Positions 1,077 to 49,498 of a stretch of DNA of 64,000 bases are shown here, in pieces. Source of the DNA: Victivallis vadensis. Lineage in GTDB: Bacteria > Verrucomicrobiota > Lentisphaeria > Victivallales > GWF2-50-93. Position 1 is the stretch's first letter; every line of letters starts with the position of its first letter. The notes beneath the pieces were generated by a model. That model had not been told where the DNA came from. It made no database searches and saw only the letters and a program-made list of their open reading frames with translations. The DNA lies in assembly GCA_945883805.1 (NCBI GenBank), contig CAMCYE010000004.1:9917-73916 (forward strand), in the 5' to 3' direction. The translations under genes were made by a program, and so were the position numbers.

Positions 1077-1118
1077 CCTAGTCGCACGCCACGGCGCGTA
1101 CGCCATAGGCGGGTAAAC
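1077..1118 (+). repeat. Variant copy of the 36-bp CCTGGTCGCC...GGTAAAC element inside a REP-like hairpin
   Basis: CCTAGTCGC...CCATAGGCGGGTAAAC lies between GCCAGC and ACCTTGCCGGC. Confidence 0.65.
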
Positions 1119-8206: not shown

Positions 8207-10168
8207 TCAGAATTTCAGTCCAAATTTCCTGATTTTCCTGTAAAGGGTGCTTCGTCCGACGTTCATGATTTTCGCAGCTTCGCTCATATTGCCGTTTGCC
8301 AGCCTGATCGCCTTCTGGCAGATGGCTTTTTCACTGCTTTCCATATTGAGTTTCTCCTGAAGCAGGGGATCGCTTATCTGCAACTCCGGCGGATCCTTGT
8401 AGAGCAGTGCCATACGGAACTGTCCGGGCAGATCCTTCCAAGTGATAAGTTCCTCCCCGCTGTTGAGCATGACGGCAAACTCAATGGCATTACGGAGCTC
8501 CCTTATGTTACCTGGCCAGGAATACGATTTGAAGTTCTTCATCATTTCCTCATCGACCCCTTTCACCTTCTTACCCATTATTTCGTTGAAATATTCGATA
8601 AAATAACGGACAAATTCAGGTATGTCCTCAACACTTTCGGAAAGCGGAGGCAGGCTTATGGATGAGACATTGAGGCGATAATAGAGATCCTCCCTGAATT
8701 CACCTTTCTCGATGAGAACCGGAATCTCCTTGTTGGTGGCGGCGATAATCCTTATGTTAATCGGGGTTCCTTTACTTTCTCCGATGCGTGTTATGGTGTG
8801 TTCCTCAAGGAGGCGGAGCAGTTTTGCCTGCAGTTCCACGGGCATGTCGCCTATCTCATCGAGGAAGACGGTGCCCTTGTCTGCGAACTCGAGCTTGCCT
8901 ATGCGTCCTCCCCTGCTGGCGCCTGTGAATGCGCCTTCGGCATAGCCGAAAAGCTCGCTTTCCGCAATTTCCCTTGGAATCGCAGCGCAGTTGATGGCTA
9001 CGAAAGGATGTTTTTTCCTGCTGCTGGCATTGTGGATGCTGTGCGCGAAAATCTCCTTGCCCGTACCGCTGGGACCGTATAGGAGGATGTTAACTGAGGT
9101 CTTCGCGGCACGCATCGCCAATTCTTTAGCCATGACAAGATTCGAAGAACGCCCGATAATATTGTCAAAGGTATATTTCGCTTCGGAAACTGTTTCATTG
9201 CTTGTACCGCTTCTTTCACCCTTTTCGTTGAATATCAGTATGCTTCCTAGAAACTCGTCGGCTTCACTGTACAGCGGAACTTTTTCATAAGTGACATCAA
9301 GATGGCGGTCGGAAATGAGGATTTCCATTTTCTTGTCAGTGCAGGCTATCGCGCTCTGTGCAATTTCCTTCACTGAAGGTTTGAAAGATGCAAGATTCTC
9401 CAGATTCTTCTCCTTCCCCCCCCTGTTGACGAAATCAAAAAACTCCATTGCTGCAGGATTCATTTGGCGTATATAGCCATTCCTGTTAATCATGACAATC
9501 GGTTTCAAGTCGTCATTGTATATGCGGGTGAACTGCTTTTTCAAATCTTTGTAAAGGTCTTTAAACCTGGTAACACGCAAATCCCTGTCATAAAGCTGAA
9601 TCAGGAAAAGAATTACAATTCCCAGCAGCAGTGCATCGGTTTCCGGCAGGAGGCCGATAAGCGACAGGTAGCCCTTCAGCGTGCCGTCAATGCCGTAAAA
9701 GGGGGCGGCTGCAGCAGAGAAAGAATGAAACTTCTTAAGAAAATGTTCGGCTCCATGACAGAAGGAGGGCTGTCCGCTCCTGATGGAAAGGGCAATGGCG
9801 TTGGTGCCTGCGTACCTTTCATTGAGAGTTGACGAGGCAATCATCCCCGAAGTTTTAAGAAGTTCCGATATTTCCTGGTTATGTGAGGAGATTTCGAGAA
9901 TCCTGCCTTCGGGAGAACATAAAAGCCAAGCAACCCTGGAAACGGAAATACTCTTCAGTGGCCCGTCTATCAGAGATTTCAACCTGGCGGTGAATTCATC
10001 CTCGGGACGCGGGGGCGCATCTCCTGGGGAGGGAGGCAACTGGCCGCCAAACGGATCCAACCCGAACTCAACCGACCTCAGCCAGCTTTCATAAATACAT
10101 TCCCTGACAGGTGGCTTCTGGCGTTCCTTGACGAAGAGCGCCCAGTCGTTATTATTGGCATATCTCAT
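8207..10168 (-). CDS. Sigma-54-dependent enhancer-binding activator (AcoR-like GAF-PAS-AAA+-Fis HTH)
   Basis: GTNAIAL/GAEHF GAF, GPSGTGKE, ESELFGYAEGAFTGA, WPGNIREL, RSTLYRK. Confidence 0.93.
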   Translation of the reverse strand: MRYANNNDWALFVKERQKPPVRECIYESWLRSVEFGLDPFGGQLPPSPGDAPPRPEDEFTARLKSLIDGPLKSISVSRVAWLLCSPEGRILEISSHNQEISELLKTSGMIASSTLNERYAGTNAIALSIRSGQPSFCHGAEHFLKKFHSFSAAAAPFYGIDGTLKGYLSLIGLLPETDALLLGIVILFLIQLYDRDLRVTRFKDLYKDLKKQFTRIYNDDLKPIVMINRNGYIRQMNPAAMEFFDFVNRGGKEKNLENLASFKPSVKEIAQSAIACTDKKMEILISDRHLDVTYEKVPLYSEADEFLGSILIFNEKGERSGTSNETVSEAKYTFDNIIGRSSNLVMAKELAMRAAKTSVNILLYGPSGTGKEIFAHSIHNASSRKKHPFVAINCAAIPREIAESELFGYAEGAFTGASRGGRIGKLEFADKGTVFLDEIGDMPVELQAKLLRLLEEHTITRIGESKGTPINIRIIAATNKEIPVLIEKGEFREDLYYRLNVSSISLPPLSESVEDIPEFVRYFIEYFNEIMGKKVKGVDEEMMKNFKSYSWPGNIRELRNAIEFAVMLNSGEELITWKDLPGQFRMALLYKDPPELQISDPLLQEKLNMESSEKAICQKAIRLANGNMSEAAKIMNVGRSTLYRKIRKFGLKF

Positions 10169-10227
10169 GAAAACAATATAGTTTTTCTTTCAGGTAAATT
10201 CAAAGTAGGAATTTATTTGTCTGAATT

Positions 10228-10475
10228 ACCTTTGGATATTGGATATTCGCTTTGAATTAGGCGACGTTGCCGCAACTTTTGAACAATCGAATATCGAACA
10301 GCCGAATTACGAATTAGAAATTACGAATTAGAAATTGAAATTAGTTGGAGTTCACGGCCCTGGTCGCCTTTGGCGCTGCCTGAGGCAGGTAAACTTTAGC
10401 GTGTCTTTTTCTCTAAACCTTGGTCTCTCGGCCACTTGGCCTCTCGGGCACTTGGAATCTTTTGATAACTTTGAA
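10228..10475. repeat. Composite repeat cluster: heptamer arrays plus a GGAG-type REP carrying the 36-bp element (10359-10394)
   Basis: GAATTAC/GAATTAG arrays; GGAGTTCACGGC|36 bp|TTTAGCGTGTC; TTGAATTAGGCGRCGTTGCCGCAA shared with 52874. Confidence 0.8.
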
Positions 10476-10487
10476 ATTCCTATACGT

Positions 10488-11549
10488 CTAATTGTTGAGC
10501 CCCAGAAGACATGAGATGATCCTCTCCCTGCCTGTGACAATCATTATCTCTGCAGTCGAGCCCAGCTTGAGGTTGTAGGGTTCATCCGTAATGGCTATTT
10601 CCACAGGATAATAAAAAGTGTCGTTTTTCTTGACGGGCATCTCATCTATTGCCAGCACCTGCCCCTTGAAATATCCGAAATTGTAATAGTTGTAGGAACG
10701 GCTGCTTATCCTCGCCTTCTGTCCGGGGTGAATCTTGTATATCTTTCTTTCATCGACATATGCAACGTACTTTTTCTGCTTAACCCCCGTCATGCGGCAG
10801 AGCAGATCCCCCTTTTGCACATATCTGGAAGGCTTGTACGGCATATGAATAATAATCCCGGCTTCCGGAGCCTTGACAGTGTAATCAGCCAGATGTTTTT
10901 CAAGCGTCTTGAATTCCCTGCCCCTGTTTTCCAGCTTTATTTTAAGAAGCTTCATTTCACTTTCAGCCTGACTGACGATTTTTTCACCCATCCCTTTGCT
11001 GACTTTCTTAAAATCACTTTCAGCCTTTTCAAGAGTCGCCTTATTTTTTATATATTCCACCTCGATATTCTCAAATTCAGTTTTGGAGATTACGTTCCTG
11101 TCAAAAAGGTCTTTGCACCTTTCAAGTTTCCCCACACTTCTGTCAAATCTCTTTCGCGCCTCATCCAGCTCGATTTCAATGTTACGGTAGTGCGTGGGCA
11201 GCGGGTCTGTGTTAAGGAGGGACAATGAATCTTCCTTCACCTTCAACTCCGCCTCTATCTCTCCTATCAAACCCTTAACCGTCTCGATTCTGTCTTCCAA
11301 CTCCGTGGAATCGAGCTTTAAGATGATCTCGTCCTGCTTCACATGCGCACCGTCGTCCTTCAGGATTTCGGTGATTTTCCCGTCAACCATCGATTTGAAT
11401 TCATAATCGTTTATGCCGCCGACTTCTCCAAATGCGAAAACAACATCCTCCATCTTGAATAGCGAAAGCATAAGTCCCGCCAAAACAACAATCAGGACGG
11501 TGATCAGGATAAGCACCCTGAAAATCTTGATTTTTTTGGTCATGCTCAT
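10488..11549 (-). CDS. HlyD-family membrane fusion/secretion protein
   Basis: N-terminal TM, lipoyl-like halves (VDGKITEIL, VKAPEAGII), long coiled coil, YNFGYFKGQV; ATGA overlap with ABC gene. Confidence 0.88.
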   Translation of the reverse strand: MSMTKKIKIFRVLILITVLIVVLAGLMLSLFKMEDVVFAFGEVGGINDYEFKSMVDGKITEILKDDGAHVKQDEIILKLDSTELEDRIETVKGLIGEIEAELKVKEDSLSLLNTDPLPTHYRNIEIELDEARKRFDRSVGKLERCKDLFDRNVISKTEFENIEVEYIKNKATLEKAESDFKKVSKGMGEKIVSQAESEMKLLKIKLENRGREFKTLEKHLADYTVKAPEAGIIIHMPYKPSRYVQKGDLLCRMTGVKQKKYVAYVDERKIYKIHPGQKARISSRSYNYYNFGYFKGQVLAIDEMPVKKNDTFYYPVEIAITDEPYNLKLGSTAEIMIVTGRERIISCLLGLNN

Positions 11550-13492
11550 AAGTCGGCCTTCATTCCGGAATTTTTCATGTTGATATTGGTCTTCCCCATG
11601 ACGGGCTTGAAAACTTCAGCATGCCTTTTCCCGGACAGTCTGGCCTTGTTGGCATCATACTTCTCATCGGGCTCGTACTCATCTTCAAACTCGCCGAACA
11701 CATTATTTTCCGGAAATTCCTTAAAGTCGTCGTCTATATCGTCAATAATCATTTTTCCGGTGATTTTCCTGAAAGCCTTCTCCTCCTGCGACATGTACAT
11801 TTGCCGGTAAACCCCTTCTTCCTTGATAAGTGCCTCATGCGTGCCGGTCTGCTTGATTTCCCCGTTTTCCATGACGACAATCAGATCGGCATTTTTAACG
11901 GTGGAGAGCCTGTGGGCTATTATTATCGTGGTCCTGTTCTTCATGAGGTGGTCGAGGGCGTCCTGCACCAGATATTCGGAGACCGTATCCAGAGCGGAAG
12001 TCGCCTCGTCGAGAATCAGCATTTTCGGGTTGTTCAAAACGGATCTGGCGATGGCGATCCTCTGTTTCTGGCCTCCGGACAGCATGGCGCCGTTCTCGCC
12101 GATTTCCGTCTTGTACCCCTTTTCAAGCTTTTTCACAAACTCCTCGACATTGGCCATTTTTGCGGCCGCCAGTATTTCATCCGGAGATGCATCCGCCCTA
12201 GCATAGGCGATATTCTCCTCAATGGTGCCGCTGAACAGGAAAGGCTCCTGCAGCACTACTCCGATCTTCTCCCTGTAGGATTCCAGGGCGAGGGTTCTTA
12301 TATCGTGGCCGTCGACGGAGATCGACCCGCTGTTGACATCGTAGAATCTCAAAAGGAGATTTGCAATGGTGGATTTGCCCGAACCGCTGGGGCCGACAAA
12401 CGCTATTTTCTGACCCGGGGAAATGTCGAGGGAGAAATGTTTTATGACCGACTTACCGTTATAGCCGAAAATCACGTCTTTAAAGCTGACTCCGCCATTC
12501 ATCTCTTTTAAAGCAACAGGATTCTCGCATTCGACAATCTCGGGAATAGTGTTGAGCAGTTTCATGATTCTTGAAGCCCCGGCCAGACCGTTTGATATGG
12601 TAGTTGAAAGTCCGCTGATGGAGACAATCGGGCCGAGCAGCATGCCGAGATACGTGTAGAACGCCACAAATTCCCCGATAGTCATGGTGCCGTTCATCAC
12701 CATGGAGCCACCGGCGGCAAGAACAACGAGAATGCATCCTATGTTTATCAATTCCGCAAGTATCCAGAGATATACGCCGTTCATGTTTATGTTTATGGTG
12801 AGATCCAGCACGGGTCTCAGCTGCGAGACAAAATTGCGGTTCTCCGTACGTTCCTTCGCAAAAGACTTCACCACCCTCACGCCATTTATCGTTTCAGCGA
12901 GATTGGCGGATATCTCGGACATCTTTTCACTCAAATCAATTTGCTGCGTCTGCATTATCTTCCTGAAATAAATGAAGTTCACAAGCTGCAAAGGTATCAG
13001 TATCAGGCAAATCAGGGCGATTTTTGGACACATCATGAAAAGAACGCCGGTGATAAAGACAATTACGAACGTGTTCATCGCCACGGTTGCCAGACTTGCG
13101 AATATCATCTGTTCGAGTCTTGCGACATCGGAAATAACATTCGATATGAGTTTCCCAGCCCTGTATTCGGTATAAAAACGCAGTGAGAGGTTCTGGAGAT
13201 GCTTAAACAGCTTTTTCCTGATGTCGAACATCAGCCTCTGTGAAATATAAAACAAAAAGTAATGGCTCATATAAAAGAATATTGAGCGCATTGCGTAGAT
13301 AAGCACAATAGAGCCGAGTATCGCGTAAAGCAACCCCAGGTCAGACGCCCCAAGCACCCGGTCTATTATTATTTTCAGCATCCAGGGAAGTACAAGCCCC
13401 AAATTGGCAAACACTATCAGACTGACTATACTGCCCACTATAAGATATCTGTATGGCCTCAAAAGTGTTATGAAATATTTGTTTTTTTTCAT
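11546..13492 (-). CDS. ABC exporter, fused permease/ATPase, with acidic C-terminal tail
   Basis: TMD, GPSGSGKS, LSGGQKQR, ILDEATSALD, IAHRLST; ATG 13492 preferred because TTG 13519 overlaps the predicted sigma-54 start site. Confidence 0.92.
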   Translation of the reverse strand: MKKNKYFITLLRPYRYLIVGSIVSLIVFANLGLVLPWMLKIIIDRVLGASDLGLLYAILGSIVLIYAMRSIFFYMSHYFLFYISQRLMFDIRKKLFKHLQNLSLRFYTEYRAGKLISNVISDVARLEQMIFASLATVAMNTFVIVFITGVLFMMCPKIALICLILIPLQLVNFIYFRKIMQTQQIDLSEKMSEISANLAETINGVRVVKSFAKERTENRNFVSQLRPVLDLTININMNGVYLWILAELINIGCILVVLAAGGSMVMNGTMTIGEFVAFYTYLGMLLGPIVSISGLSTTISNGLAGASRIMKLLNTIPEIVECENPVALKEMNGGVSFKDVIFGYNGKSVIKHFSLDISPGQKIAFVGPSGSGKSTIANLLLRFYDVNSGSISVDGHDIRTLALESYREKIGVVLQEPFLFSGTIEENIAYARADASPDEILAAAKMANVEEFVKKLEKGYKTEIGENGAMLSGGQKQRIAIARSVLNNPKMLILDEATSALDTVSEYLVQDALDHLMKNRTTIIIAHRLSTVKNADLIVVMENGEIKQTGTHEALIKEEGVYRQMYMSQEEKAFRKITGKMIIDDIDDDFKEFPENNVFGEFEDEYEPDEKYDANKARLSGKRHAEVFKPVMGKTNINMKNSGMKADL

Positions 13493-13528
13493 TTTCCGTA
13501 TTATTTCTTTTGTTTGCAAAAACGATGA

Positions 13529-13543
13529 GCATAAAGCATTCCA
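13529..13543 (-). promoter_or_regulatory. Sigma-54 (-24/-12) promoter of the ABC-HlyD unit
   Basis: Minus strand TGGAATGCTTTATGC with exact GG-N10-GC spacing, 36 bp before the ATG; activator gene in same cluster. Confidence 0.7.
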
Positions 13544-13630
13544 TATTAATTATTATTAATATATTCAGTTAATCATCAACGTAATATACATATTCACAAT
13601 AAAAAATCCTTGGAACTTCAATTGACAAGG

Positions 13631-13748
13631 TGTCCCATCTCTGGCACATCATGACGCGTATATTTTCATAATATAATCATAACTTGCTGCAAACATTGAT
13701 GTTATATATATTTTCACAAATGGCACACTCCATTCCCAATATGACACA
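13631..13748. promoter_or_regulatory. Candidate upstream activator sites (TGT-N12-ACA)
   Basis: TGTCCCATCTCTGGCACA (13631-13648) plus degenerate copies ending TGGCACA (13727) and TGACACA (13748); AT-rich spacer to promoter. Confidence 0.55.
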
Positions 13749-13755
13749 CCAGTAC

Positions 13756-13882
13756 TGGATTCGTTGGGCGAAAGAATTTCCGAACCTTTATTAAGACAAG
13801 CAGACGCTTGGCGTTCTCAGGAATGCCGTCTGGTCGGCTCTATGCAATTCTTCTGTAAAAGTCTTTCCACACGAGATTATCA
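13756..13882. repeat. MITE-like element, same family as 18390-18550 and the addB insert at 48328-48415
   Basis: TTAAGACAAGCAGACGCTTGGCGTTCTCAGGAATGCCGTCTGGTCGGCTC...TTCCACA. Confidence 0.75.
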
Positions 13883-13992
13883 GTCAAAAACTACACCGGA
13901 ATTTTTCAGTAAATGCAGCTTTCACAATTCTGCAAATTGTGGAAACTGGCACTTAAACTGATATAGTTTCCCTGAAAAACTATAAATACGGG

Positions 13993-15714
13993 ATGAGTAT
14001 GCGGAATTCGCAAAAAAACATAACGTTCTTGGAAGTCAATTCATCGTATTCACACACGATGCTTTCGTATGGATATCTCCGTGCATACACCGAAAAAATG
14101 CTGTCCGGATGGAACTGGAACCACATCGAGACAACCACCAATGAGGACGGAGATGCCGCCCTCCTGAAAACATTGTCCGTCAGACCGGACGTAGTCTGCG
14201 CCACGTTATACCTTTTCAACCACGAATATACTGTAAAAATCCTCAAGAAACTGAAAAGGCTTCTGCCAGACTGCATGATTTTCCTAGGCGGTCCGGAATT
14301 CCTCGGCAACAATGAGGAATTCCTGCGAAAGAATCCGGAAGTGAGCGCCACAATACGCGGAGATGAAAGCAGTTTCCATTCCCTGCTGGCAAATCTGGAC
14401 AAAAAAGACAAATGGAAAAAGATCCCCGGTGTGTGCTTTGTCCGTAACGGCAGATATTCCGATGCCGGTTTTGCGAAATTCGCAGGCAGTCTTGATGAAA
14501 CCCCCTCACCATATGAAAAAGGACATTACACATCGGGCAGACCTTTCTACCAGATAGAAACTTCCCGCGGCTGCGGAGGGAAATGCAGTTTCTGCACCAG
14601 CGCACTGTCAGACGGCATCGCCTGTTTCAGCATTTCCAGAATAAGAAATGAACTTGAAATCCTGAGCAAGGCTGGCATCCGCGAAATCCGCATTGTTGAC
14701 CGGACTTTCAACGAAGACAAAAAACGCTCGACGGATCTCCTGAAAATATTCAGGCAGTATCCTGAAATAAGGTTTCACCTTGAAATAAATCCGGCACTTG
14801 TCGATCAGGAGATACTGGATGAGCTAAACCTGTTCACGGCGAAACGACTCCATATCGAGACAGGAATACAGACCCTTTGCGAAAAGAGCCTCAAATCGGT
14901 CAAGAGATTCGGCTCTGCCGAAAAAATGCTTTCCGGACTTAAAAAGCTCCGCCACTTGGAAAACGCCGAACTTCACGTCGACCTGATCTCCGGACTGCCG
15001 GAACAGAAATTCAGCGATGTCCTGAACGATGTGAAAAAGCTTATCAAGGTCAACCCCCATGAAATCCAGCTCGAGACCCTCAAGATCCTTCCCGGAACGT
15101 CAATCTCGGTCAATCCGCCGCCTGGGAATGTTTCAAACCCCCTGCCCCCGTATGAAATCCTTGAGACAAGGACAATGACGGCAGGCCAGCTCCAGACGGC
15201 AAAACATCTTTCCAAAATGCTCGATTCATATTTAAACATCCCCAGATTGAAGAACTTATTCAGGTTCGCATTCATCCGGGACAAATCATTCATTGAAAAG
15301 TTTCTCCGGCATCTTGAGACAAATTCGGATCCGATGCAGAAACATCATCTCGACAGAAGACTTCTGATGTTGAAAGACTACGCCGACAAAAATGACACAC
15401 TTCTTGCTGAATCCGTAATTTTCTTCTGGTTATCAGGAGGATTTCCTCCTGATAAATGTATCACGGGCATCCTGCCTGTGACGACAAGAAAAATAAAAAA
15501 TATCCGAAAAGATGAGCCACCGGACGGGAAGAACATTTTCACATCCGCTGAAAATATTTCCCCGTCAAAAATAATTGAAATCGAATTCAGTTTCAACGCC
15601 GCTGATTTATGGCTGGATCCGGAGGCGAAATTGATGAAAGGCAAATTCAAATATCTTTTTTACACAGCACAAGGCAGCAGAGTCATGAGGATTCAGAGTC
15701 ATCCCGAAGGATGA
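13993..15714 (+). CDS. B12-binding radical SAM protein (DUF4080-type)
   Basis: Cobalamin-binding-like N-terminus (LGGPEF), ETSRGCGGKCSFC, VDRTFN, HVDLISGLP. Confidence 0.85.
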   Translation: MSMRNSQKNITFLEVNSSYSHTMLSYGYLRAYTEKMLSGWNWNHIETTTNEDGDAALLKTLSVRPDVVCATLYLFNHEYTVKILKKLKRLLPDCMIFLGGPEFLGNNEEFLRKNPEVSATIRGDESSFHSLLANLDKKDKWKKIPGVCFVRNGRYSDAGFAKFAGSLDETPSPYEKGHYTSGRPFYQIETSRGCGGKCSFCTSALSDGIACFSISRIRNELEILSKAGIREIRIVDRTFNEDKKRSTDLLKIFRQYPEIRFHLEINPALVDQEILDELNLFTAKRLHIETGIQTLCEKSLKSVKRFGSAEKMLSGLKKLRHLENAELHVDLISGLPEQKFSDVLNDVKKLIKVNPHEIQLETLKILPGTSISVNPPPGNVSNPLPPYEILETRTMTAGQLQTAKHLSKMLDSYLNIPRLKNLFRFAFIRDKSFIEKFLRHLETNSDPMQKHHLDRRLLMLKDYADKNDTLLAESVIFFWLSGGFPPDKCITGILPVTTRKIKNIRKDEPPDGKNIFTSAENISPSKIIEIEFSFNAADLWLDPEAKLMKGKFKYLFYTAQGSRVMRIQSHPEG

Positions 15715-15945
15715 CGGATGGATGGATTGTCGGATTACCCGCCTTCGCTAAAATGCTACGGCGCGGCAAGATGGATGATTGGGTTTGAGTTCAAAGAAAA
15801 TCTAAAAGAGTTCCTGTATGCAAAAAACGGAAAAGTTATTTTACGAATTTATCACAGGATTGTTCTATGCTTCTGTCTTTGATACGCAACCATCCAGCAA
15901 TCCAATCATCCCTGGCCGTCCGGCACGGGCAGGCCAATCATCCAT
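15715..15945. repeat. Inverted GGATGGATT/AATCCATCC-type arrays with nested 33-bp element (15738-15770) and CCTG..GGCAGG hairpin (15911-15933)
   Basis: Direct reading of arrays and inserts. Confidence 0.65.
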
Positions 15946-15954
15946 GGGACGGCA

Positions 15955-16893
15955 ATGAACATGAACGGAGAAACAGGGACACCACTTGCCCCGAAACCCG
16001 CTAAGTCGCCGGAACTCACGGCTGGCATGTCATGCAGGGAGGCCGCGCTCCGCTCCTTTGACTTTTATTTTCGGAACTTTTTATGGAATGAGAAAGGGGC
16101 TCGTATCGGAAATGATCCTGAATTCCTTCATTATCTTCGTGTAGCTTCAAAGAGACTCAGGGTCGCCCTCGCTGTTTTCGAAGAATATTTCCCCGAAGAC
16201 AATATTTCCAGTTACAGAAGTGAGTTGAAATCACTGGCGCAGATATTCGGAAAGGCCAGGGATACTGACGTTTACCTGGAATTCCTCAGTGACACGGCCT
16301 CAAAGATGACGAGTCCGGACGAGCTCAGCGTTTTCAACAAATACAAGAACTTTTTCCTCAGGAGGAAAAAATTTCGCCAACGGGCCGTTTTAAAAAAGCT
16401 GGACACGAAAGATTATAAATCATTTGTTGCCGAATTCGCAAATTTCATTTCTCGAAATCTCCCCGCTGAAAACGCAGGCGCTGAAACGCCGGTGTCTGAA
16501 ATCATTGACCTAAAAATAAGGGCAAGGCTTGAAGAACTCATCAAACATTCAGAAAAACTGACCCGCAATTCCTCCGATTCCAAACTCCACAAGTTCAGAA
16601 TTAAATGCAGGAAGCTCAGATATGAAGTGGAGATTTTCCTCGATGTCCCCGGCAATAACTGGGAGGAGTTGGACAGAAGGCTGATCGAACTTCAGCGCTC
16701 GCTCGGCTCGCATCACGACGCAGTGACAGCCGGAAAAAAACTGGCCTCATACATAAGAACACACAAGGAATATTCAAAATCCAGAACTTTGAAAAAATTG
16801 AGGAACCTCCAGAATGAAAGAGCTTCGAAGTTCAGGAATGAATTCTTTGTAATATTTTTTCACATGAAAAAATATCTCAGACGCTGTCTTTAA
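15955..16893 (+). CDS. Stand-alone CHAD-domain protein (putative polyphosphate-binding)
   Basis: DPEFLHYLRVASKRLR, GKARDTDV, LHKFRIKCRKLRY, LGSHHD. Confidence 0.88.
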   Translation: MNMNGETGTPLAPKPAKSPELTAGMSCREAALRSFDFYFRNFLWNEKGARIGNDPEFLHYLRVASKRLRVALAVFEEYFPEDNISSYRSELKSLAQIFGKARDTDVYLEFLSDTASKMTSPDELSVFNKYKNFFLRRKKFRQRAVLKKLDTKDYKSFVAEFANFISRNLPAENAGAETPVSEIIDLKIRARLEELIKHSEKLTRNSSDSKLHKFRIKCRKLRYEVEIFLDVPGNNWEELDRRLIELQRSLGSHHDAVTAGKKLASYIRTHKEYSKSRTLKKLRNLQNERASKFRNEFFVIFFHMKKYLRRCL

Positions 16894-18301
16894 GCCTCTG
16901 AATCACCTTCTGATTCGCCTCGTAGAAGCACATCGCATCAGGAGAGGTGATGACATCCTGCCTTGACTGGTCCATAACCTTCTTCCGCTTGACTGAATCA
17001 CTGAGATATCTCTCGAGATATCTTACAAGTGTCCGCGGACTCAGCTCCTCAAATATGTGCTGTCCGAACTCCTCGACATAATCGGACGCTATCACTGAGA
17101 CCAGCTCCTTGCCCGGAGACTTCATCCCCATGGCCATAAGGAAATCATGAACCATTTCCTGACATGTGATTTCGTCGAAAAACGGAAAGGCAAACCCCTT
17201 GCCGCGGCTTAAAATATTGGCGGGACATTCATAGTTGGAAGCTATGATTACAGTTATATTTTCAGGCAAAACACAGCTTCCCCCGATATTTGTCCTGAAG
17301 TAATACCAGTCAATTTTCCTGGTGTCCACATCATCAAAAAACAGGACAAAGCGTCTGTTCGAACGCTTGCCCAATATTGCAATGAGGTCAACAAGGGGCT
17401 TTTCAAGCTCATGCGGTTCGCAGAGGATGAGGGTGAGGTTCTGGAAATAAAGCGAATAGGAAATTGTAAAGTGGGTTTTCCCAAGTCCGGGAAGACTGGT
17501 TATGAGAAGAGGGAAATTCTCGCCTTTTTCGGAGAAAGCCGCAAGATATTTCCTGAAGAATTCCTTCGCCGAAGGAAAACCGTAGAACTTGCCGACCGGA
17601 CGAACCGGACCGATTTTCGCCGGAAAAAACCTCCCCTCTGAAAAACGAAAAACCCTGTCTCCCGAAAGAAAAGGATCCATTTTCTGGAAACGTTCCTGCA
17701 GTTCTGCAATCGGCACGGTATGCAAATCTATTTTTGAGTCGAATATTTCCGACATTGAAAGCTTTTCCCGGATGAAAGGGGTCAGTCTTGTCAGGGAGCT
17801 TCCGCTTCTGTCCAGGCTGGAAATAATATCCATGTAATCCACAACGAGCTTAATTCCGGATTTGACAAGCCTGTCGCCGTGGGCGAGTTTGAATTTTATT
17901 ATCTCCTCATCCTTTTTTTCGTTGACTAGGCTCTGGTCGAGTGTCGTGGTTTCGATAATTGCGGCAATGAGGATGTCGTTGAAATTCTGTTTTCTGCAAA
18001 GCGCCATCAGGGAATTGATATAATCTATTGAATCCGGTTCAGTCCCTGAAACATAGCTTCTCCTGGAGGCCGTATTCGGGTTTTCACGAAGCAGGTCAAG
18101 TTCAGAGTCTATTGAAATCAATATTTTGAAAAAGAGGGAAAGGAGTTCGCTGTTCCCCAGTTCCTTGATCTTCAACCCCTGTCCGGATATATGCTCAAAC
18201 AGTACATTGAAGCTCGCAAGGGAATCCATTGACAGGACCTTCAGGTCTGCAAGAACAGCCCCTGCATCATTCCCGGAAATTTTTTCAGTTTTTATCGGCA
18301 T
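16877..18301 (-). CDS. P-loop AAA-type ATPase (DUF815-like C-terminal domain) with unknown N-terminal half
   Basis: Walker A SLPGLGKT, Walker B FVLFFDD, IIASN, LSPRT. Confidence 0.65.
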   Translation of the reverse strand: MPIKTEKISGNDAGAVLADLKVLSMDSLASFNVLFEHISGQGLKIKELGNSELLSLFFKILISIDSELDLLRENPNTASRRSYVSGTEPDSIDYINSLMALCRKQNFNDILIAAIIETTTLDQSLVNEKKDEEIIKFKLAHGDRLVKSGIKLVVDYMDIISSLDRSGSSLTRLTPFIREKLSMSEIFDSKIDLHTVPIAELQERFQKMDPFLSGDRVFRFSEGRFFPAKIGPVRPVGKFYGFPSAKEFFRKYLAAFSEKGENFPLLITSLPGLGKTHFTISYSLYFQNLTLILCEPHELEKPLVDLIAILGKRSNRRFVLFFDDVDTRKIDWYYFRTNIGGSCVLPENITVIIASNYECPANILSRGKGFAFPFFDEITCQEMVHDFLMAMGMKSPGKELVSVIASDYVEEFGQHIFEELSPRTLVRYLERYLSDSVKRKKVMDQSRQDVITSPDAMCFYEANQKVIQRLKDSV

Positions 18302-18372
18302 GACGGTAATATAAGGGGATTTCGGAGAATTTCACCTAAAGGATTCATAAGATCCCCCCGATTGCCTTTTAA

Positions 18373-18712
18373 TGTAGCACAGGCCCTGGATTTGCTTGGC
18401 GGAAGTATTTCCGCACATTTTTAAGCCAAGTCGTTCTTAGATCCCGAGTCACATCATGAGCTCGGGGCAGACTCTTGGCGTTCCCGGGAACGCTGACCGT
18501 CTGGTCGGCTCCATGTATTTCTTGTGCGGAAGGACTTCCGCCGAAAGTATCTGGTCGCCGTAGGCGCTGCCATACGCTTGTACGCCTCAGGCGTGCAGGT
18601 AAACATTCTTGCCTGTATCTTCATTTCCAGATGTGATGTTGAGAATACGCTAGGGCGCACAAGTCACAGACACGAAAAACAGAAACTACAGATAGGAATG
18701 TCTGTGTTACTT
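18373..18712. mobile_element. Multiply nested non-autonomous elements: REPIN > 36-bp element > MITE > hairpin
   Basis: Each layer resolved by comparison with simpler copies elsewhere in the window (see findings). Confidence 0.75.
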
Positions 18713-18763
18713 TCAAGAAGAAGACTCTTTTTTTTAATGATCCCTCCTGAAAACAAGATGAAC

Positions 18764-18796
18764 AAAAAAAAAGCCGGAAGGTTAATTCCGGCTTTT
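18764..18796 (-). terminator. Rho-independent terminator of pnp
   Basis: AAAAGCCGGAA-loop-TTCCGGCTTTT with a long U tract on minus strand. Confidence 0.8.
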
Positions 18797-18823
18797 CCAT
18801 TTAGATTTAAATTAAATCAGGAC

Positions 18824-20929
18824 TTATTCCTTGTCGCCCATTTCCGCAAGGGCGGCTTTGCGACTGAGGCGGATTTTCCCGCGGTCGTCAACACCGATGA
18901 CTTTGACGGTTATCATATCGCCTTCCTGGCAGATGTCGGTAACCTTATTCACCCTGTAATCGGCCATTTCGGAAATATGGAGAAGTCCGTCCTGTCCGGG
19001 AATCAGTTCGACGAATGCGCCGAATTCCTTGATGGACCTGACCTGACCACGGTAGATTTTTCCGATTTCAACTTCGGCGGTTATGTCCTGGACAGCTTTT
19101 GTCGCTGCATCGAGGGCATCCTTGTTTGCGGCGAAGATCTTGACGCTTCCGTCATCTTCAATGTCAATCTGTGCGCCTGTTGATTCGGTAATGCCACGGA
19201 TAACACTTCCACCGGGGCCGATGAGGGCTCCGATTTTCTCGGTGTTTATCTTAAGGCTCACAATACGTGGGGCATATTTGCTCATTTCGGTTCTTGGAGC
19301 CGAAATACAGTCAGTCATCACTTTCAGGATCTTCGTCCTTGCTTCACGGTTGCGGAGCATGGCTGCATAGAGGAGATCAATTGAAACGCCGGCAATCTTG
19401 AGATCCAGCTGGAATCCGGTAATTCCCTTCGGGGTTCCGCACACCTTGAAATCCATGTCGCCGAAGTGATCTTCAGCGCCTATGATGTCGGTGAGGAGAA
19501 TGTTTTTGTCCCCTTCGGAAATGAGACCGCATGAAATTCCGGCAACCGGGTCTGTTATCGGTACGCCCGCATCCATGAGGGCAAGGGTTCCGCCACATAC
19601 GCTCGCCATTGAAGTCGAGCCGTTTGAGGCCATTATTTCAGAAACACATCTCACCGTGTAAGGATAATCGACCGGGATAACCTGTGCGAGCGAACGCTCA
19701 GCAAGGTTTCCATGACCAATCTCCCTGCGTCCGGGACCGGAAATTCTTCCGACTTCACCGACACTGAAATTCGGGAAGTTGTAATGCAGATAGAAATTTT
19801 TCATGTCTGATCCGCCTGTGATGGGATCGCTCTCCTGAGCATCGCGTCCTGCACCAAGGGTGACTATCACAAGCGCCTGGGTTTCACCGCGGGTGAAAAG
19901 GCCTGTTCCATGAACTCTGGGAAGCACGCCTACCTCGGAAGTTATGAGACGGAGTTCATCCATCCCCCTGCCGTCGGGGCGGATGCCCTTTTCAACAATT
20001 GCGAACCTGACAGTCTTCTCGACGAGATGGTCGAAACACATCTTGAGTTTCATATCCAGTTCTTCAACAGTTTCCTTGAACTTGGCGGTAATCTCGGCTG
20101 AAAGTTCCTTGAAGATAACGCCCAATGCATTCTGTCTGTCCTCTTTTCCAGTCATGAGGCATGCGCTGTCTATTTTTCCCTTGCAGAAATTATGGACGGC
20201 ATCCTTTACATTTTCCGGAACGAGATGGAGGGTCGGTTCTTTTTTCTTTCTTCCGCCGACTGCCGCAAGTTCTTTCTGCGCCTGAATCTGCTTTTCAACA
20301 ATTCCATTCGCGAAAATCAATGCGTCGCGTAAAAGCTCTTCGGAGCATTCCTTCGCATCGCCTTCGATCATGATGACTTTTCCGGCAACGCCCGCATAAA
20401 CAAGGTCAAGAGTGCTAGTGGCCATTTCAGTATGGGTCGGGTTCGCTACAAATTTTCCGTCGATACATCCGACGCGCAGTGCGCCGATAGGACCGCGGAA
20501 CGGAAGATCCGACAATGTCAGAGCCACTGAGGCGCCAAGGATTGTCAGCACATCGGATTCGTTTTCGCCGTCAGAACTCAGAAGCAGAGCCTGTATCTGG
20601 ATTTCATCGAAAAATCCTTCCGGGAACAGAGGCCGTACCGGGCGGTCAGTCATCCTGCATGTCAGGATTTCTTTTTCGCTGGGTCTTCCTTCCCGCTTTA
20701 TATAGCCACCGGGGAAACGGCCCGCCGCACTGTATTTTTCACGGTAGTCCACCTGTAACGGGAGAAAATCGGTGCCAGCTTTCGCCTTGCCCGAACAGCA
20801 CGCCACAAGTACCACAGTTTCACCGAGTTGAAGTATGCAGGATCCGTTGGCAAGATTCGCAAGTTTTCCGGTTGAGATCTCAATGATACGGCCGTTGCCG
20901 ATATCAACATTCACTTTTTTTTCACTCAT
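18824..20929 (-). CDS. pnp: Polyribonucleotide nucleotidyltransferase
   Basis: PGGYIKREGRP, RREIGHGNLA, SNGSTSMASVC, DHFGDMDFKV, KH and S1 domains. Confidence 0.98.
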   Translation of the reverse strand: MSEKKVNVDIGNGRIIEISTGKLANLANGSCILQLGETVVLVACCSGKAKAGTDFLPLQVDYREKYSAAGRFPGGYIKREGRPSEKEILTCRMTDRPVRPLFPEGFFDEIQIQALLLSSDGENESDVLTILGASVALTLSDLPFRGPIGALRVGCIDGKFVANPTHTEMATSTLDLVYAGVAGKVIMIEGDAKECSEELLRDALIFANGIVEKQIQAQKELAAVGGRKKKEPTLHLVPENVKDAVHNFCKGKIDSACLMTGKEDRQNALGVIFKELSAEITAKFKETVEELDMKLKMCFDHLVEKTVRFAIVEKGIRPDGRGMDELRLITSEVGVLPRVHGTGLFTRGETQALVIVTLGAGRDAQESDPITGGSDMKNFYLHYNFPNFSVGEVGRISGPGRREIGHGNLAERSLAQVIPVDYPYTVRCVSEIMASNGSTSMASVCGGTLALMDAGVPITDPVAGISCGLISEGDKNILLTDIIGAEDHFGDMDFKVCGTPKGITGFQLDLKIAGVSIDLLYAAMLRNREARTKILKVMTDCISAPRTEMSKYAPRIVSLKINTEKIGALIGPGGSVIRGITESTGAQIDIEDDGSVKIFAANKDALDAATKAVQDITAEVEIGKIYRGQVRSIKEFGAFVELIPGQDGLLHISEMADYRVNKVTDICQEGDMITVKVIGVDDRGKIRLSRKAALAEMGDKE

Positions 20930-21055
20930 TTCAATACCTTTTCTGTTTCACTGCAGTTTATCTGCAGCAATTGTTTTTTTTCGAAAACAAGAAGTAGTCA
21001 GGGTGATTGAATACGGAAAAGAATAACAGGAGTCAGAACAACCATAAATATGGCG

Positions 21056-21110
21056 GAATCGCGGTATCAAGTCCCGATTTGCATACGGAACCTGATAGCG
21101 GCCGAATTCC
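21056..21110 (-). promoter_or_regulatory. Long irregular stem in rpsO-pnp leader (possible RNase III site)
   Basis: GGAATCGCGGTATCAAGTCCCG...CGGAACCTGATAGCGGCCGAATTCC; analogous position to the E. coli pnp leader. Confidence 0.35.
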
Positions 21111-21175
21111 ACTCAGATTTCGACGGTTGCAGTCATCTGTTAGTATATTCCGTTTTCAGTCAGACTGAAAACTGC

Positions 21176-21445
21176 TTATTTATTTTTCCTGATATTCAGC
21201 TCTGTCGTGAGAGACTGATATTTCTCATGATTCTTCTTATTCAGATAGCTGAGAAGCTTGCGCCTTTTGCTGACAATATCCATCAGGCCTTTTCTCGAAC
21301 TTATGTCCTTCTTATGGCTTCTGAGATGCTCTGTGAGCTCGTTAATCCGTTCGGACATGAGGGCGATTTGGACTTCAGAAGAACCCGTGTCTCCCGCTTT
21401 CCTTCCGTACTTCTCCATCACTTCTTTCTTTGCACTTACATTCAT
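21176..21445 (-). CDS. rpsO: 30S ribosomal protein S15
   Basis: DTGSSEVQIA, HKKDISSRKGL, upstream of pnp. Confidence 0.97.
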   Translation of the reverse strand: MNVSAKKEVMEKYGRKAGDTGSSEVQIALMSERINELTEHLRSHKKDISSRKGLMDIVSKRRKLLSYLNKKNHEKYQSLTTELNIRKNK

Positions 21446-21567
21446 GAAATCTGTAAATCCTTATATTTTCAACACTTTTTCACTTAAAAAATCAAAATCA
21501 GTTGGAACTTTAAACCGAAACAGTTTTTTTACAATATGAATATTGAAAAAAGATAAAATTTTATTAT

Positions 21568-21604
21568 AAAAAGGAAAGGAGCCACGACGGCTCCTTCCCT
21601 TTTT
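21568..21604 (-). terminator. Terminator after ilvB
   Basis: AAAAAGGAAAGGAGCC-ACGAC-GGCTCCTTCCCTTTTT hairpin. Confidence 0.7.
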
Positions 21605-23318: not shown

Positions 23319-23523
23319 TTTTACCTTTAATTTTTAATTCGGGCTAATATCCTACCGCTTCACATTCACTTTTCAATATATGCCCGTAAAGAAATCTTCA
23401 TTTTGCGCGAATTTCCCCGCATCGGCATCACCGGCAAGTAATACGAGGGAAGCAAACGACTTCGTCGCATGAACTTAAGAAAACCTTTATTTCCAAAATC
23501 TGCGGGGAACTGTATATTGTCTC

Positions 23524-24249
23524 ATGAAAAAAGCATGGATGGTAATAATCATAATCGCCTCAGTCATCGCATTCGCCGGGATGGGATTTGTTGTTTTCAA
23601 GAAGGTGAAGCCTTCAGTCCTCAACAAACAGATTGCTTCGGGCGGAGCTGACCCAAACGGCTCGATAAAACGGCTCTCCAGGAAGGCCAAGCCCATCAGT
23701 AAAATAATAAACCTGAGATATCAGACACCCACGCAGTCATCTTCCGAACTGCTTGATGAATTCTCCTCCCTCGACGTGGACGGCAGAATAAAATACATCG
23801 CATCGCTTTACACCTATGAACCGTCACTTCTGACGCTCGCCCTTTCCGACAAATCCAAAGATGTCAGAATCGCCGCCATCAGATTCATCTCCTACATCCC
23901 CGAAGACCAAGTGGATATCGCCCCGTTCATGTCGATAGGCCTGGACGACGAGTTGCTGGAAGTCCGCGAGGAAGCCCGCAACACGATGGATTACATCGTC
24001 GACGTCAACACCATGTTGAAAATAATGCGGGGCTCCATAGACTCAAGATACGCGGATACAAGATTGAAATGCGTTTCCGAAGCCGCCAAACTCGGTGTTT
24101 CAAAAGAGGATTTAAAAGAATTGACCCTCAAGGCGCTCGCAGATGAGGACAGGAACGTCCAGGATACCGCCCTTAAAACCGCTTCATTTCTCTGGGGAAA
24201 GGAATTCAAATCCGAACAAGAAGCCATTGAATACATTTCCAGCCACTAA
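23524..24249 (+). CDS. Membrane-anchored HEAT-repeat protein
   Basis: N-terminal hydrophobic helix; repeated LxDxxxxVR motifs. Confidence 0.65.
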   Translation: MKKAWMVIIIIASVIAFAGMGFVVFKKVKPSVLNKQIASGGADPNGSIKRLSRKAKPISKIINLRYQTPTQSSSELLDEFSSLDVDGRIKYIASLYTYEPSLLTLALSDKSKDVRIAAIRFISYIPEDQVDIAPFMSIGLDDELLEVREEARNTMDYIVDVNTMLKIMRGSIDSRYADTRLKCVSEAAKLGVSKEDLKELTLKALADEDRNVQDTALKTASFLWGKEFKSEQEAIEYISSH

Positions 24250-24426: not shown

Positions 24427-24434
24427 GTGTATTC

Positions 24435-26162
24435 TTGGAATTGATAATAAGCAACCTGCGGATACCCGTTGAGAAGGACGGGATTGACGAATATGTGAAA
24501 GCCGCTTCACAAAAGCTGGAATTTGGCGCGGAAACCATAAAATTCTCCCGGATGCTCAGCAAGTCGCTCGACATGTCCGACAAAGATCAGTTCTTCTATG
24601 ATGTCTCAGTAGTTGTCACTGTCCCGGACAATTTCGACAACAGGCAAGACTTCCCTGCATATAATGCATGTAATTGCAAAACACAAGAAACGGTCGCGAC
24701 AAGCCCTGGTCGCCTTTGGAGCCGCCATATGCGGGTAAACACAACCCTCCATAATGCCGGAACAGATAAAAGTGGAGGGCGAGGCTTGTCCGAGCCGCAG
24801 TTATCTATTCACCCCTTAGAAAAAACTGAAAAACCGGCAAACATCAAGGAACGCCCCATAATCGTGGGGTTCGGTCCCGCCGGGATGTTTGCCGCACTAG
24901 AACTTTTGAATTATGGAATTAGGCCAATAATCTTCGAACGCGGTAAAAAGATAGAGGAGCGCGACATTGATGTTCAAAAGTTCGTCCGGGAAAGGGAGCT
25001 GGACCCGGAGTCGAACATCCAATTCGGCGAAGGCGGCGCTGGGTCATACTCGGACGGAAAACTGTTTTCAAGAATCAGGAATAATTCCGGACACGTGAAC
25101 AGGGTGCTCGACACTCTGATAAAGTTCGGCGCGCCGGAAGAAATAGGTTACATCAGCAAACCGCATCTCGGCACAGACGTGCTGTGCAGGATAGTCCGCA
25201 ACATACGGAATCACGTCCTTGAGAGAGGCGGCGAAATACATTACAATTCAAAACTCACCGACATCATCTCATCTGACGGGAAAATCCGGGGAGTGGTGGT
25301 GAACGGTGAAAAGGAATACCTTTCTTCAACAGTCTATCTTGCGGTCGGGCATTCTGCGCGCGACACGTTTGAGATTCTCCACGGCAAAGGCGTCGCCATT
25401 GAGCAGAAGCCGATTTCCGTAGGCGTCAGGGTTGAGCATCCTGCTGAAATCATCAATCTCATAAGGTACGGCTACAAATACAAGGACTTCCGCGGCATAG
25501 GGGCGGCCACGTATTCCTTCAACCATACCGACCGGAAAACAGGAAGGGGAGCATACACGTTCTGCATGTGCCCCGGTGGCGAGGTGGTGAACGCCTCATC
25601 TGAAAAGGGCATGCTGGTTCTAAACGGCATGAGCTACTCCCGCAGGGCTTCGCCATTCTCGAATTCGGCGATTGCAGTGACCTGCCGGACGGATGATTAT
25701 AAGACCGCAAGCCCGCTGGCGGGAATTGAATTCCAAAAGGATATGGAGCGAAGGGCGTTCAACGCAACAGGGGGAACTTGGAGGGCTCCAGCACAGAATC
25801 TGATGGATTTCCTGAACCGAAAAAACTCCCTCGAGCTAAATGAAAACTCCTACAAGATGGGCGTCGCATCCGTCAACATGAATGAAATCCTGCCCGGATT
25901 CGTGTGCGAATCTCTCGCGACCGCATTCAACAAATGGAAAGAGGATTATCCTCTCTTTGTTTCAGAACATGCCATTTTGCTCGGCGTTGAAACAAGGACT
26001 TCCTCCCCGGTAAAAATCATGCGCAATGAAAAATATGAATCCGTGAACATGGGGAACCTGTATCCGATAGGCGAAGGTTCCGGCTATACCGGCGGTATAA
26101 CAAGTTCGGCTGCGGATGCCATAAAGGCAGTGGAACTCAGCGCTTTATCCCATTTGCAGTAG
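24435..26162 (+). CDS. FAD-dependent oxidoreductase with an in-frame repeat insertion
   Basis: VGFGPAG, QFGEGGAGSYSDGKL, FCMCPGG, ETRTSSP, GEGSGYTGGITSSAADA; insert at ~24668-24800. Confidence 0.88.
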   Translation: MELIISNLRIPVEKDGIDEYVKAASQKLEFGAETIKFSRMLSKSLDMSDKDQFFYDVSVVVTVPDNFDNRQDFPAYNACNCKTQETVATSPGRLWSRHMRVNTTLHNAGTDKSGGRGLSEPQLSIHPLEKTEKPANIKERPIIVGFGPAGMFAALELLNYGIRPIIFERGKKIEERDIDVQKFVRERELDPESNIQFGEGGAGSYSDGKLFSRIRNNSGHVNRVLDTLIKFGAPEEIGYISKPHLGTDVLCRIVRNIRNHVLERGGEIHYNSKLTDIISSDGKIRGVVVNGEKEYLSSTVYLAVGHSARDTFEILHGKGVAIEQKPISVGVRVEHPAEIINLIRYGYKYKDFRGIGAATYSFNHTDRKTGRGAYTFCMCPGGEVVNASSEKGMLVLNGMSYSRRASPFSNSAIAVTCRTDDYKTASPLAGIEFQKDMERRAFNATGGTWRAPAQNLMDFLNRKNSLELNENSYKMGVASVNMNEILPGFVCESLATAFNKWKEDYPLFVSEHAILLGVETRTSSPVKIMRNEKYESVNMGNLYPIGEGSGYTGGITSSAADAIKAVELSALSHLQ

Positions 26163-29371: not shown

Positions 29372-29429
29372 GTTGATTTTTTCCTGTTAACGCATATTGT
29401 AAGAACTGTCAAAACACATGAGGTCTTTT

Positions 29430-32599: not shown

Positions 32600-32745
32600 T
32601 TTTAAAGGCTCACACTAAAGTGTGAACTCCAAATTTTGGAGTCCAGCCTTTAGGCTGTTCTTTAGACACGCTAAAGTTTACCTGCACGCCTGAGGCGTAC
32701 AAGCCTCAGGCAGCGCCAAAGGCGACCAGGGCTGTGAACTCCAAC
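32600..32745. repeat. GGAG-type REP cluster with the 55-bp form of the 36-bp element (32676-32730)
   Basis: CACACTAAAGTGTGAACTCC, GGAGTCCAGCCTTTAGGCTG, GACACGCTAAA|55 bp|GCTGTGAACTCC. Confidence 0.8.
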
Positions 32746-42084: not shown

Positions 42085-42197
42085 GAGCCAATTTCAAAAC
42101 TACGGCTCGGACAAGCCTCGCCCTCCATTATTACGACCGTTTCGGGAGTGGAGGGTTTTGCTTGTCAAAACCGTTTCTTGAGTTTTGAAATTACCTC
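42085..42197. mobile_element. MITE-like shell carrying a GGAG-type REP pair; intergenic homolog of the insert at 24668-24800
   Basis: GAGCCAATTTCAAAACT...AGTTTTGAAATTACCTC enclosing CGGCTCGGACAAGCCTCGCCCTCCA. Confidence 0.75.
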
Positions 42198-49411: not shown

Positions 49412-49498
49412 GAAGCGTCTTTCGGAGTGCGCAGGTTTACCCGCCTTTGGCGACGCCGTAGGCGGGTAAACCTACGCACACACTCCAAAGATTGCTTT
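49412..49498. repeat. Nested palindrome: GGAGTGCG..CACTCC host with symmetric GTTTACCCGCC..GGCGGGTAAAC insert (49435-49471)
   Basis: Long imperfect inverted repeat read directly. Confidence 0.75.

Follow-up and report, generated by a model that had tools for sequence, protein, structure and literature searches.

A short, modular hairpin element nested within REP sequences and recurring across phyla

Within the 64-kb window analysed here (the whole stretch from position 9917 to 73916 of contig C4, in an assembly, G000, of 3.48 Mb, 192 contigs and 91% completeness), a short element, called E in the following, is found inside REP sequences, and the genome as a whole holds 73 E loci, every one of which is intergenic. 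The element is 24 to 74 nt long and modular in its build. Judging from sequence comparisons, I give about an even chance to the reading that E is a REP/REPIN/BIME-like single-strand element which is moved by HUH chemistry, is non-autonomous and is nested in other repeats. The sequencing runs that hold the source organism are lake and freshwater metagenomes.

Structure of the element

The consensus of E consists of CCTGGT, the hairpin CGCCnnnGGCG, a single C, the hairpin CYGCCnnnGGCRG and GTAAAC; the copy at window positions 10359-10394, for instance, reads CCTGGT, CGCC-TTT-GGCG, C, TGCC-TGA-GGCA, GGTAAAC. It contains two inverted 11-nt GC hairpins (CGCC-TNY-GGCG) with the foot CCTGGT on the top strand and GTTTACC on the bottom strand. 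Among the matches listed, loop a is TNY with T as its first base in 122 of 125 copies, and loop b shows the mirror set, with A as its last base in 113 of 125, so both hairpins are one unit on opposite strands. E is therefore a dimer in which a single hairpin unit is present twice, in inverted orientation and with a different foot each time, much as in REPINs and BIMEs.

The free base pair of stem b is C-G in 114, T-A in 9, T.G in one and C.A in one of the 125 copies among the matches listed, and in the source genome C-G in 5 and T-A in 7 with no mismatch, counts that are taken over mutually related copies and so do not represent independent events. On this pattern the hairpins appear conserved as structures while their loops vary. 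Full complementarity of the two loops within one E occurs in a single copy of the 125 among the matches listed, against 16.3 expected (minimum 3 in 20,000 shuffles); the obvious candidate explanation is that perfect long palindromes are avoided. Alone, the 36-mer folds into two triloop hairpins at -7.9 kcal/mol (z -2.08); folded together with its host, E does no better than shuffled sequence (z -0.4 to -0.5).

Two modules can extend the element. M1, which is ACGCC-nnn-GCGCGTAAAC, is placed after GTCGC, and M2, which is TTGT-ACGCC-nnn-GGCGT-GC, after the GGC of the second stem. On the opposite strand M2 is approximately the same unit as M1, and the nested modules end in GTAAAC, as E itself does; M1 and M2 are probably small hairpin units of one kind that entered E in opposite orientations. 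The shortest form, of 24 nt, has one hairpin flanked by both feet, and homodimers are found as well, left-left on contig C96 and right-right at window position 49435.

Copies in the window

All six places at which the first-pass annotation had reported the element hold the sequence that it described. The 36-nt copy at 10359..10394 (plus strand) lies between ggagttcacggc and tttagcgtgtct in a REP of family H1, which it splits (10347..10406, plus strand) and whose empty form is ggagttcacRgctttagcgtgtct. Another 36-nt copy, at 24705..24740 (plus strand), lies in an H2 REP between ggtcgcgacaagc and acaaccctcc; its paralogous empty site, ggttttgacaagc directly followed by aaaaccctcc, is real and is located on the minus strand at 42150..42172, two bases off the 42148-42170 given previously. 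In an H4 REP, between gaaacgccagc and accttgccggcatcc, a variant of 42 nt (1077..1118, plus strand) consists of the left end, part of M1 and one hairpin. The 55-nt form with M2 is present in an H1 REP on the minus strand (32676..32730), and this filled H1 adjoins an empty H8 REP (tggagtccagc followed by ctttaggctgt; 32637..32658, plus strand). The supposedly interrupted copy at 18385-18604 resolves into a left stub, CCTGG, in an H3 REP after gtagcacaggc (18385..18389, plus strand), and the rest of the split element, a 55-nt form with M2 that is followed by the H3 right arm attcttgcctgt (18550..18604, plus strand); a 161-nt repeat with inverted ends, unrelated to E, separates the two, with CTGG on both sides (18390..18550, plus strand). 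The 19-bp insert said to be shared by two copies is TTGTACGCCTCAGGCGTGC, which both 55-nt forms contain. The symmetric variant at 49435..49471, to which no strand is assigned, is indeed palindromic: it has a right end on either side (GGTTTACC-hairpin-A-hairpin-GGTAAACC), lies within an H5-like host and folds at -25.5 kcal/mol (z -7.05). The five asymmetric copies follow agc or ggc in H4, H1 (twice), H3 and H2, as had been claimed, without duplication and with a junction that is ambiguous by one C.

Chance can be excluded as the source of these matches: the window contains GCRGGTAAAC 8 times, compared to a mean of 0.12 and a largest value of 2 in 100 shuffles, and CCTGGTCGCC at up to one mismatch occurs 9 times, compared to 2.92, with none of 100 shuffles reaching 9. 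The reversed E pattern has no match in 41 genomes, whereas the true pattern matches 12 genomes.

Two other repeats in the window are worth recording. The 161-nt repeat gives 83 BLAST pieces genome-wide, including many full-length copies of 85-95% identity, and several of its copies are without an internal 36-nt hairpin segment (positions 42-77), which indicates a nested mini-insert there too. The repeat GGTTCGTTTTCATTTTGAGTGGGTAAACACACAAAATATGAAAATAATTGAATATCCA, at about window positions 14830-14890 on the minus strand and at some 26 other places in G000, has GGTAAAC within the loop of a hairpin; its opposite strand ends in ATG AAA ACG AAC, and the repeat resembles a leader and start region that many genes have in common.

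Host sequences and junctions

The genome-wide census used a profile built from 24 clean 36-mers, with an additional regular-expression pass. The 36-nt form is the most frequent (32 loci), and is followed by forms of 55 nt (10), 54 nt (7), 73 nt (5), 35 nt (3) and 27 nt (2), by single copies of 24, 37, 39, 42, 57 and 74 nt, and by 8 loci without a canonical left or right end. The flanks of E belong to REP families, inverted copies of which are found within 200 nt on either side of Y1 genes: H1 REPs surround the RAYT gene on C90, H3b and H7 the Y1 gene on C14, H2 the gene at C9:15372, an H4-like repeat the Y1 gene on C23, and H6-like and H5-like repeats those on C96 and at C9:51602. With the NCBI model for REP-associated tyrosine transposases (NF047646), 3 of the 5 proteins tested pass; those of C14, C9 and C23 are above the cut-off, that of C90 falls short with a score of 75 where 80 is required, and the C40 protein is of the IS200 type. 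The hosts of E in G000 are canonical REP-RAYT systems.

In each of ten REP families the empty form, with nothing between left and right flank, is more frequent than the filled form, with something in between. The empty and E-filled counts are 76 and 10 for H1, 23 and 7 (plus one truncated) for H2, 34 and 4 for H3, 8 and 3 for H4, 13 and 2 for H5, 55 and at least 1 (three by flank listing) for H6, 19 and 3 for H7, 19 and 3 for H8, 6 and 4 for H9, and 16 and 1 for H10. The junction lies between the same two bases in each of the ten families, and the boundaries of E never vary with the host. No base of the empty form is duplicated, although one C at the junction can be assigned to either side. 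In terms of REP structure, the site corresponds to the boundary of 5' stem and loop in H1, H3, H4, H7, H9 and H10, to the boundary of loop and 3' stem in H2 and H5, and to the gap separating two hairpins in H6. What the sites in G000 have in common is agc or ggc just before E, seen in 56 of the 69 loci with a called left end among the 73 loci of the genome-wide collection that had been proposed. The earlier description, of REP flanks, a fixed junction after RGC and no target duplication, is thus borne out in ten mostly empty families.

As filled REP copies are the minority, one might also suppose that these REPs were ancestrally long and lost E by repeated precise deletion, nothing ever having been inserted; replication slippage can delete small hairpin-flanked segments. 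I consider this extremely unlikely, as it needs the same 36 nt to be ancestral in ten families that otherwise differ in stems and loops, and in unrelated repeats of other phyla, and as the junction has no direct repeat from which a precise loss could arise.

Other short sequences occupy the same REP spots as E. H7 and H3 contain a 23-nt insert, TTCCYGCCCCGTCGGATGACCGG, at such positions, H2 a 33-nt insert, and an H8-like family a 40-nt insert that begins with ACGTGACC. A first group of these is found at C13:542, C48:15591, C76 and C11:1313, a second at C14:13480, C18:4458, C126 and C129, and a third on C5 and at C21:32739 and C43:8978. The REP loops of G000 look like general landing sites.

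Multiplication with the host REP

The variants of E mostly group by host family, as judged from flank and sequence listings of G000 (a crude regular-expression table left many copies unclassified). The three copies in H6 are identical or one base apart, those in H8 have the loops TTT/YGT in common, those in H9 have TCC in common, those in H7 all start with CTTGG, and those in H1 mostly show a CTGCC...GGCAG stem. The H1+E composite with this stem recurs in nine other genomes searched, namely G001 and G003-G008, as well as G015 and G016, where the flank is H1-like. G000 itself has three identical H1+E copies that are surrounded by unrelated sequence outside the REP, from which it follows that the multiplying unit is the REP plus E. 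Most G000 copies look co-amplified with their REP, with few separate insertions; because the variants cluster by host, the genus may have seen no more than about ten independent insertions in its history.

A different explanation of this shuffled picture is that E has no life of its own, and is an exchangeable block of a BIME-like mosaic, moved about by RAYT cleavage and strand exchange or by recombination between repeats. One recognisable family flanks E on both sides at 39 of the 73 loci, on one side at 16 and on neither at 10, and the remaining 8 are chimeras, for instance H1 on the left and H4 on the right, of which two look like mis-assignment of similar left motifs. The chimeric flanks would fit recombination between E copies in neighbouring REPs, and they are what a mosaic would produce; the other inserts of 23, 33 and 40 nt at the same REP spots, the 12 Y1 genes in G000 and the production of such variants by the E. 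coli RAYT in vitro agree with it as well. However, a mosaic of local blocks would hardly keep the boundaries of E constant across hosts, nor the ends, even the loops, identical in phyla where E is flanked by repeats that have no relation to these REPs, and E is also present in a genome without H1 (G016). I regard the mosaic as unlikely.

E and its H1 host are separable, as H1 without E exists in G011 and G014, and E without H1 in G016. The numbers of empty H1 and of 36-nt E are 79 and 32 in G000, 22 and 23 in G001, 74 and 4 in G002, 3 and 21 in G003, 108 and 4 in G006, 122 and 50 in G007, 3 and 0 in G009, 30 and 0 in G011, 57 and 0 in G014, and 0 and 5 in G016. Across species of one genus the copy number of E ranges from 0 to 50. 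I infer the mobility of E from paralogous empty sites only. None of the contigs from four public runs that cover window positions 10000-29999 bridges an E site with at least 31 letters per side; these contigs end at repeats, and a joint of 10358 with 10435 (side 21) most probably stems from a different copy of H1. The closest metagenome relative of the neighbouring gene encodes an 87% identical protein, with no strain-level alleles. In G002 and G009 the orthologous gaps either contain other repeats or are free of them, so that neither an orthologous nor a strain-level empty site was seen.

Search for an enzyme

In G000, the Y1_Tnp model (PF01797) has 12 matches, 10 of them above the cut-off, and none is located on the contig of the window, in agreement with the first-pass annotation that no enzyme is in the window. 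The twelve Y1 (HUH) genes in 3.5 Mb are distributed over C90, C14, C9, C23, C96, C45, C19, C13, C40, C48 and C25, and each is flanked by its own repeat family. The sole IS200-type TnpA (C40) is flanked by a different 7-copy repeat, and the Y1 gene on C25, whose long product has an HTH domain at its C-terminus, has the inverted ends GGGGTCAC, of the kind described for the TIRYT class in section 15 of PMC6006769.

E was not found beside any Y1 gene in G000 (0 of 12), G007 (0 of 8) or G009 (0 of 3), nor at the 30 examined of 41 matches in five E-rich genomes of other phyla; the assemblies searched in this way are incomplete, except G214 and G269. G009, a close relative, has three Y1 matches and three H1 repeats, and no E. 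Y1 genes are present in 10 of 10 E-positive and in 196 of 291 E-negative genomes (one-sided p 0.021, relatives not being independent), and as the base rate of Y1 in the 301 genomes is 68%, the co-presence says little. In this profiling of candidate transposases, which had been suggested, Y1 accompanies E but is also common without it, and IS91-type transposases do not follow E. No enzyme could be linked to the element, and HUH catalysis is presumed.

Among the genes beside E in 80 cross-phylum loci, no family recurs in more than four loci and no Y1-like ORF was seen. In a Desulfobacteraceae MAG (L115:2186-2782), two inverted E copies enclose a four-helix-bundle-like protein of 121 aa, presumably of the 23S rRNA intervening-sequence type family; as a partner of E this gene was dismissed, the pairing being found in 2 of the 80 loci only. 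In the complete genome G214, two E copies 5.3 kb apart enclose transport and metabolic genes only. The alternative that E is the end of a known autonomous insertion sequence found no match either, since G000 and about 190 fetched loci hold neither an autonomous copy nor any gene-sized long element with the ends of E.

A more specific version of this alternative makes E the miniature of an IS91-type insertion sequence (Y2 HUH, rolling-circle), which I judge very unlikely. It shares with IS91 the lack of target duplication, a subterminal palindrome at each end and a similar short motif at target and far end: on the opposite strand G-N-T follows E (GTTC where the flank is gaac), and the far end begins with GTTTAC. 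The target expected for IS91 next to one fixed end is GTTC/CTTG, and an aac flank, giving GTT on the other strand, is present in 34 of 122 copies among the matches listed. However, no end sequence is shared, and with 36 nt in all E falls far below the 89 and 82 bp of ends used in a working mini-IS91, the minimal experimental ends. The distribution of the transposase points away from IS91 too: G000 has only a 24-bit fragment match to the model, G007 (50 E) and G001 (23 E) have no match, G010 and G012 have full-length genes and no E, and of the five E-rich genomes from other phyla just one encodes an IS91-type transposase. Four full-length copies examined in relatives are without E-like ends. 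The IS91-type transposase genes in G010, G012 and G021 (L163-L165) directly follow a tyrosine-recombinase-like ORF.

Distribution across genomes and phyla

The exact IUPAC 36-mer, with 30 fixed bases, was found in at least 117 stretches from at least 75 assemblies. By record titles, the matches listed comprise 29 assemblies of Verrucomicrobiota, 3 of Kiritimatiellota and 7 of Lentisphaerota, 25 of Desulfobacterota-type and 8 of Nitrospirota, and one each of Omnitrophota, Planctomycetota and a Pseudomonadota-labelled MAG. In a sample of the phylum E is patchy: of 301 genomes 10 have it, and of 148 genera 9. The same 36-mers recur between phyla down to their loops (TTC/AGA 15 times and TCT/GAA 15 times among the matches listed), and identical ones, again including the loops, are found in Opitutaceae, Desulfobacterales and Nitrospirota records. 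Viral contigs with E (5 stretches in 4 records) are too few to name a vector.

Among the matches listed with enough flank, C directly precedes E in 118 of 122 copies, and R-N-C does so in 113. At position -3, 87 of these copies have A and 26 have G; on the other side, E is followed by C in 62 and by T in 45. Flanks that pair across E over at least 6 nt are present in 20% of the 113 non-tandem copies among the matches listed, compared to 5.7% for shuffled flanks (maximum 12% in 200 shuffles), so that hairpin hosts are over-represented without being the norm beyond the source genus; many flanks in other phyla are short-repeat arrays (NNTGAAC, CTCTTT). The REP stem as such, which had been proposed as the target, is consequently not what the sites share, as its pairing is seen in only this fifth of copies; the shared target is R-N-C, then Y. 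Of the structure-targeted insertion put forward earlier, the fixed junction in REPs stands, whereas the stem is not the target and most copies look co-amplified. The end of E can itself serve as a target, as follows from abutting copies: in a groundwater Verrucomicrobia MAG three copies lie head to tail with no spacer (L085:2773-2880), and at L046:2995-3066 E is directly followed by a diverged copy ending in GGGCAAGC.

The conservation of thirty fixed bases across phyla, the compensatory change at one stem pair and the avoided loop-loop palindrome (1 observed, 16.3 expected) could also indicate a functional motif, the DNA site of a conserved protein or a structured RNA, that is kept by selection, the insertion-like pattern being secondary. 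In my view this is distinctly unlikely. Rfam gives no match at the gathering score for the whole window, and none even at E-value 10 for positions 10300-10460, and the fold energies with host are unremarkable. E is found in all gene arrangements, co-oriented in 27, anti-oriented in 16, within convergent pairs in 10 and within divergent pairs in 9 cases, and being intergenic with no clear orientation bias it argues against a role at the transcript level. A functional site would moreover be restricted to just 10 of the 301 genomes of the phylum, and would vary from 0 to 50 copies between species of one genus.

Relation to known systems

E resembles the REPINs and BIMEs of E. coli and Pseudomonas, which have RAYT (TnpA-REP) enzymes; with them it shares short GC-rich intergenic hairpins in tens of copies, an inverted dimer with two subtypes (compare the y and z REPs of BIME), and the presence of single-hairpin "double foot" forms and tandem arrays. 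It differs in its hairpins of only 4-5 bp with 3-nt loops, in the absence of an E-flanked RAYT from any genome examined, in its location inside other REPs, and in its feet, CCTGGT and GTTTACC, which are without the GT[AG]G tetranucleotide that section 12 of PMC6006769 places 5' at the foot of the REP hairpin. In addition, its sequence is identical between phyla, whereas the REPIN literature describes REPINs and REPs as vertically inherited partners of a single RAYT, and REPIN-RAYT systems as vertically inherited.

Specific insertion into REP sequences is also seen in larger elements. Tobes and Pareja reportedly described, in 2006, IS elements that insert specifically into REPs (IS1397, ISKpn1, ISPpu9/ISPpu10 and ISPa11), a subject also of the papers on ISPpu9, and such REP-targeting elements carry genes, are about 1-2 kb long and belong to the IS3 and IS110 families. 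Parasitism of REPs is thus an established idea where full-size IS elements are concerned; in contrast to these, E has 24-74 nt, no gene and no terminal inverted repeats, and is copied with its host REP. The IS200/IS605 family and PATEs resemble E in insertion 3' of a short specific sequence with no duplication, and in left and right ends that differ and each have a subterminal hairpin, to which single-strand HUH chemistry would fit. Unlike these, no tnpA or tnpB copy lies between the ends of E in G000 or in about 190 fetched loci. The hairpins of IS608 are much longer than those of E, and IS608 shows a replication-strand bias; no strand bias is seen for E (36 versus 35 by GC skew and 41 versus 30 by gene-strand majority, both weak proxies in a 192-contig assembly).

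Several other classes were dismissed. A MITE moved by cut-and-paste (DDE) chemistry does not agree with differing ends and no target-site duplication. Compared by eye, E is not a CRISPR repeat, as it is single or abutting without spacers, and the core motifs of integron attC sites, group II intron domain V and the hammerhead ribozyme do not fit it. A full-text search of the literature for CCTGGTCGCC, GGCGGGTAAAC and GTTTACCCGCC gave, among the papers listed, primers, vectors and T-DNA borders and no description of E, and the papers listed on REPs, RAYTs and REPINs showed nothing on elements nested in REPs. With no Rfam match and no description in the literature searched, the earlier impression that E is not a recognised family holds.

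The 11 bases GGCGGGTAAAC at the right end of E (for example window 24730-24740) equal the outer 11 of the Agrobacterium T-DNA right border as quoted in matching papers. VirD2 is an HUH-type relaxase that nicks at the other end of the T-DNA border, and the match is a resemblance only.

A possible mode of movement

Single-strand transposition, the enzyme class and the acting enzyme are matters that I infer. An HUH-type tyrosine enzyme would excise and join E as single-stranded DNA, cleaving after C, with one cut at the target, R-N-C/Y, and one at the element's own end, after AAAC; cuts of this kind would leave no bases duplicated. Single-stranded, hairpin-prone repeats such as REP loops would be the sites where E lands or is tolerated, and once inside a REP it would be copied along by the RAYT of that REP family, which would account for most G000 copies. 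According to PMC3333891, the E. coli RAYT cleaves single-stranded DNA after C (C/T; TGCC/TGAT) and can exchange strands, and the authors propose that single-strand BIME circles are excised and re-integrated at other cleavage sites. By analogy, the E junctions fit this published cleavage after C.

One may, more tentatively, see E as a hyper-parasite, which integrates as single-stranded DNA after C in repeats, is multiplied by the RAYTs of its hosts and passes between phyla with its sequence intact, through Y1 HUH enzymes acting in trans or through an enzyme class new to transposition; I hold this possible rather than probable.

Implications

Nested modules such as E account for part of the length variation of REP families, and they break assemblies, as public contigs stop at these sites. 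If E is indeed a hyper-parasite, it would at 24-36 nt be among the smallest mobile DNAs known, and, with two hairpins of 4-5 bp and feet of 6-7 nt, a very small natural substrate for the choice of cleavage site by HUH enzymes. Its presence inside at least ten REP families, and its unchanged sequence in Verrucomicrobiota, Desulfobacterota and Nitrospirota, would then add a second layer of parasitism to the REP-RAYT system.
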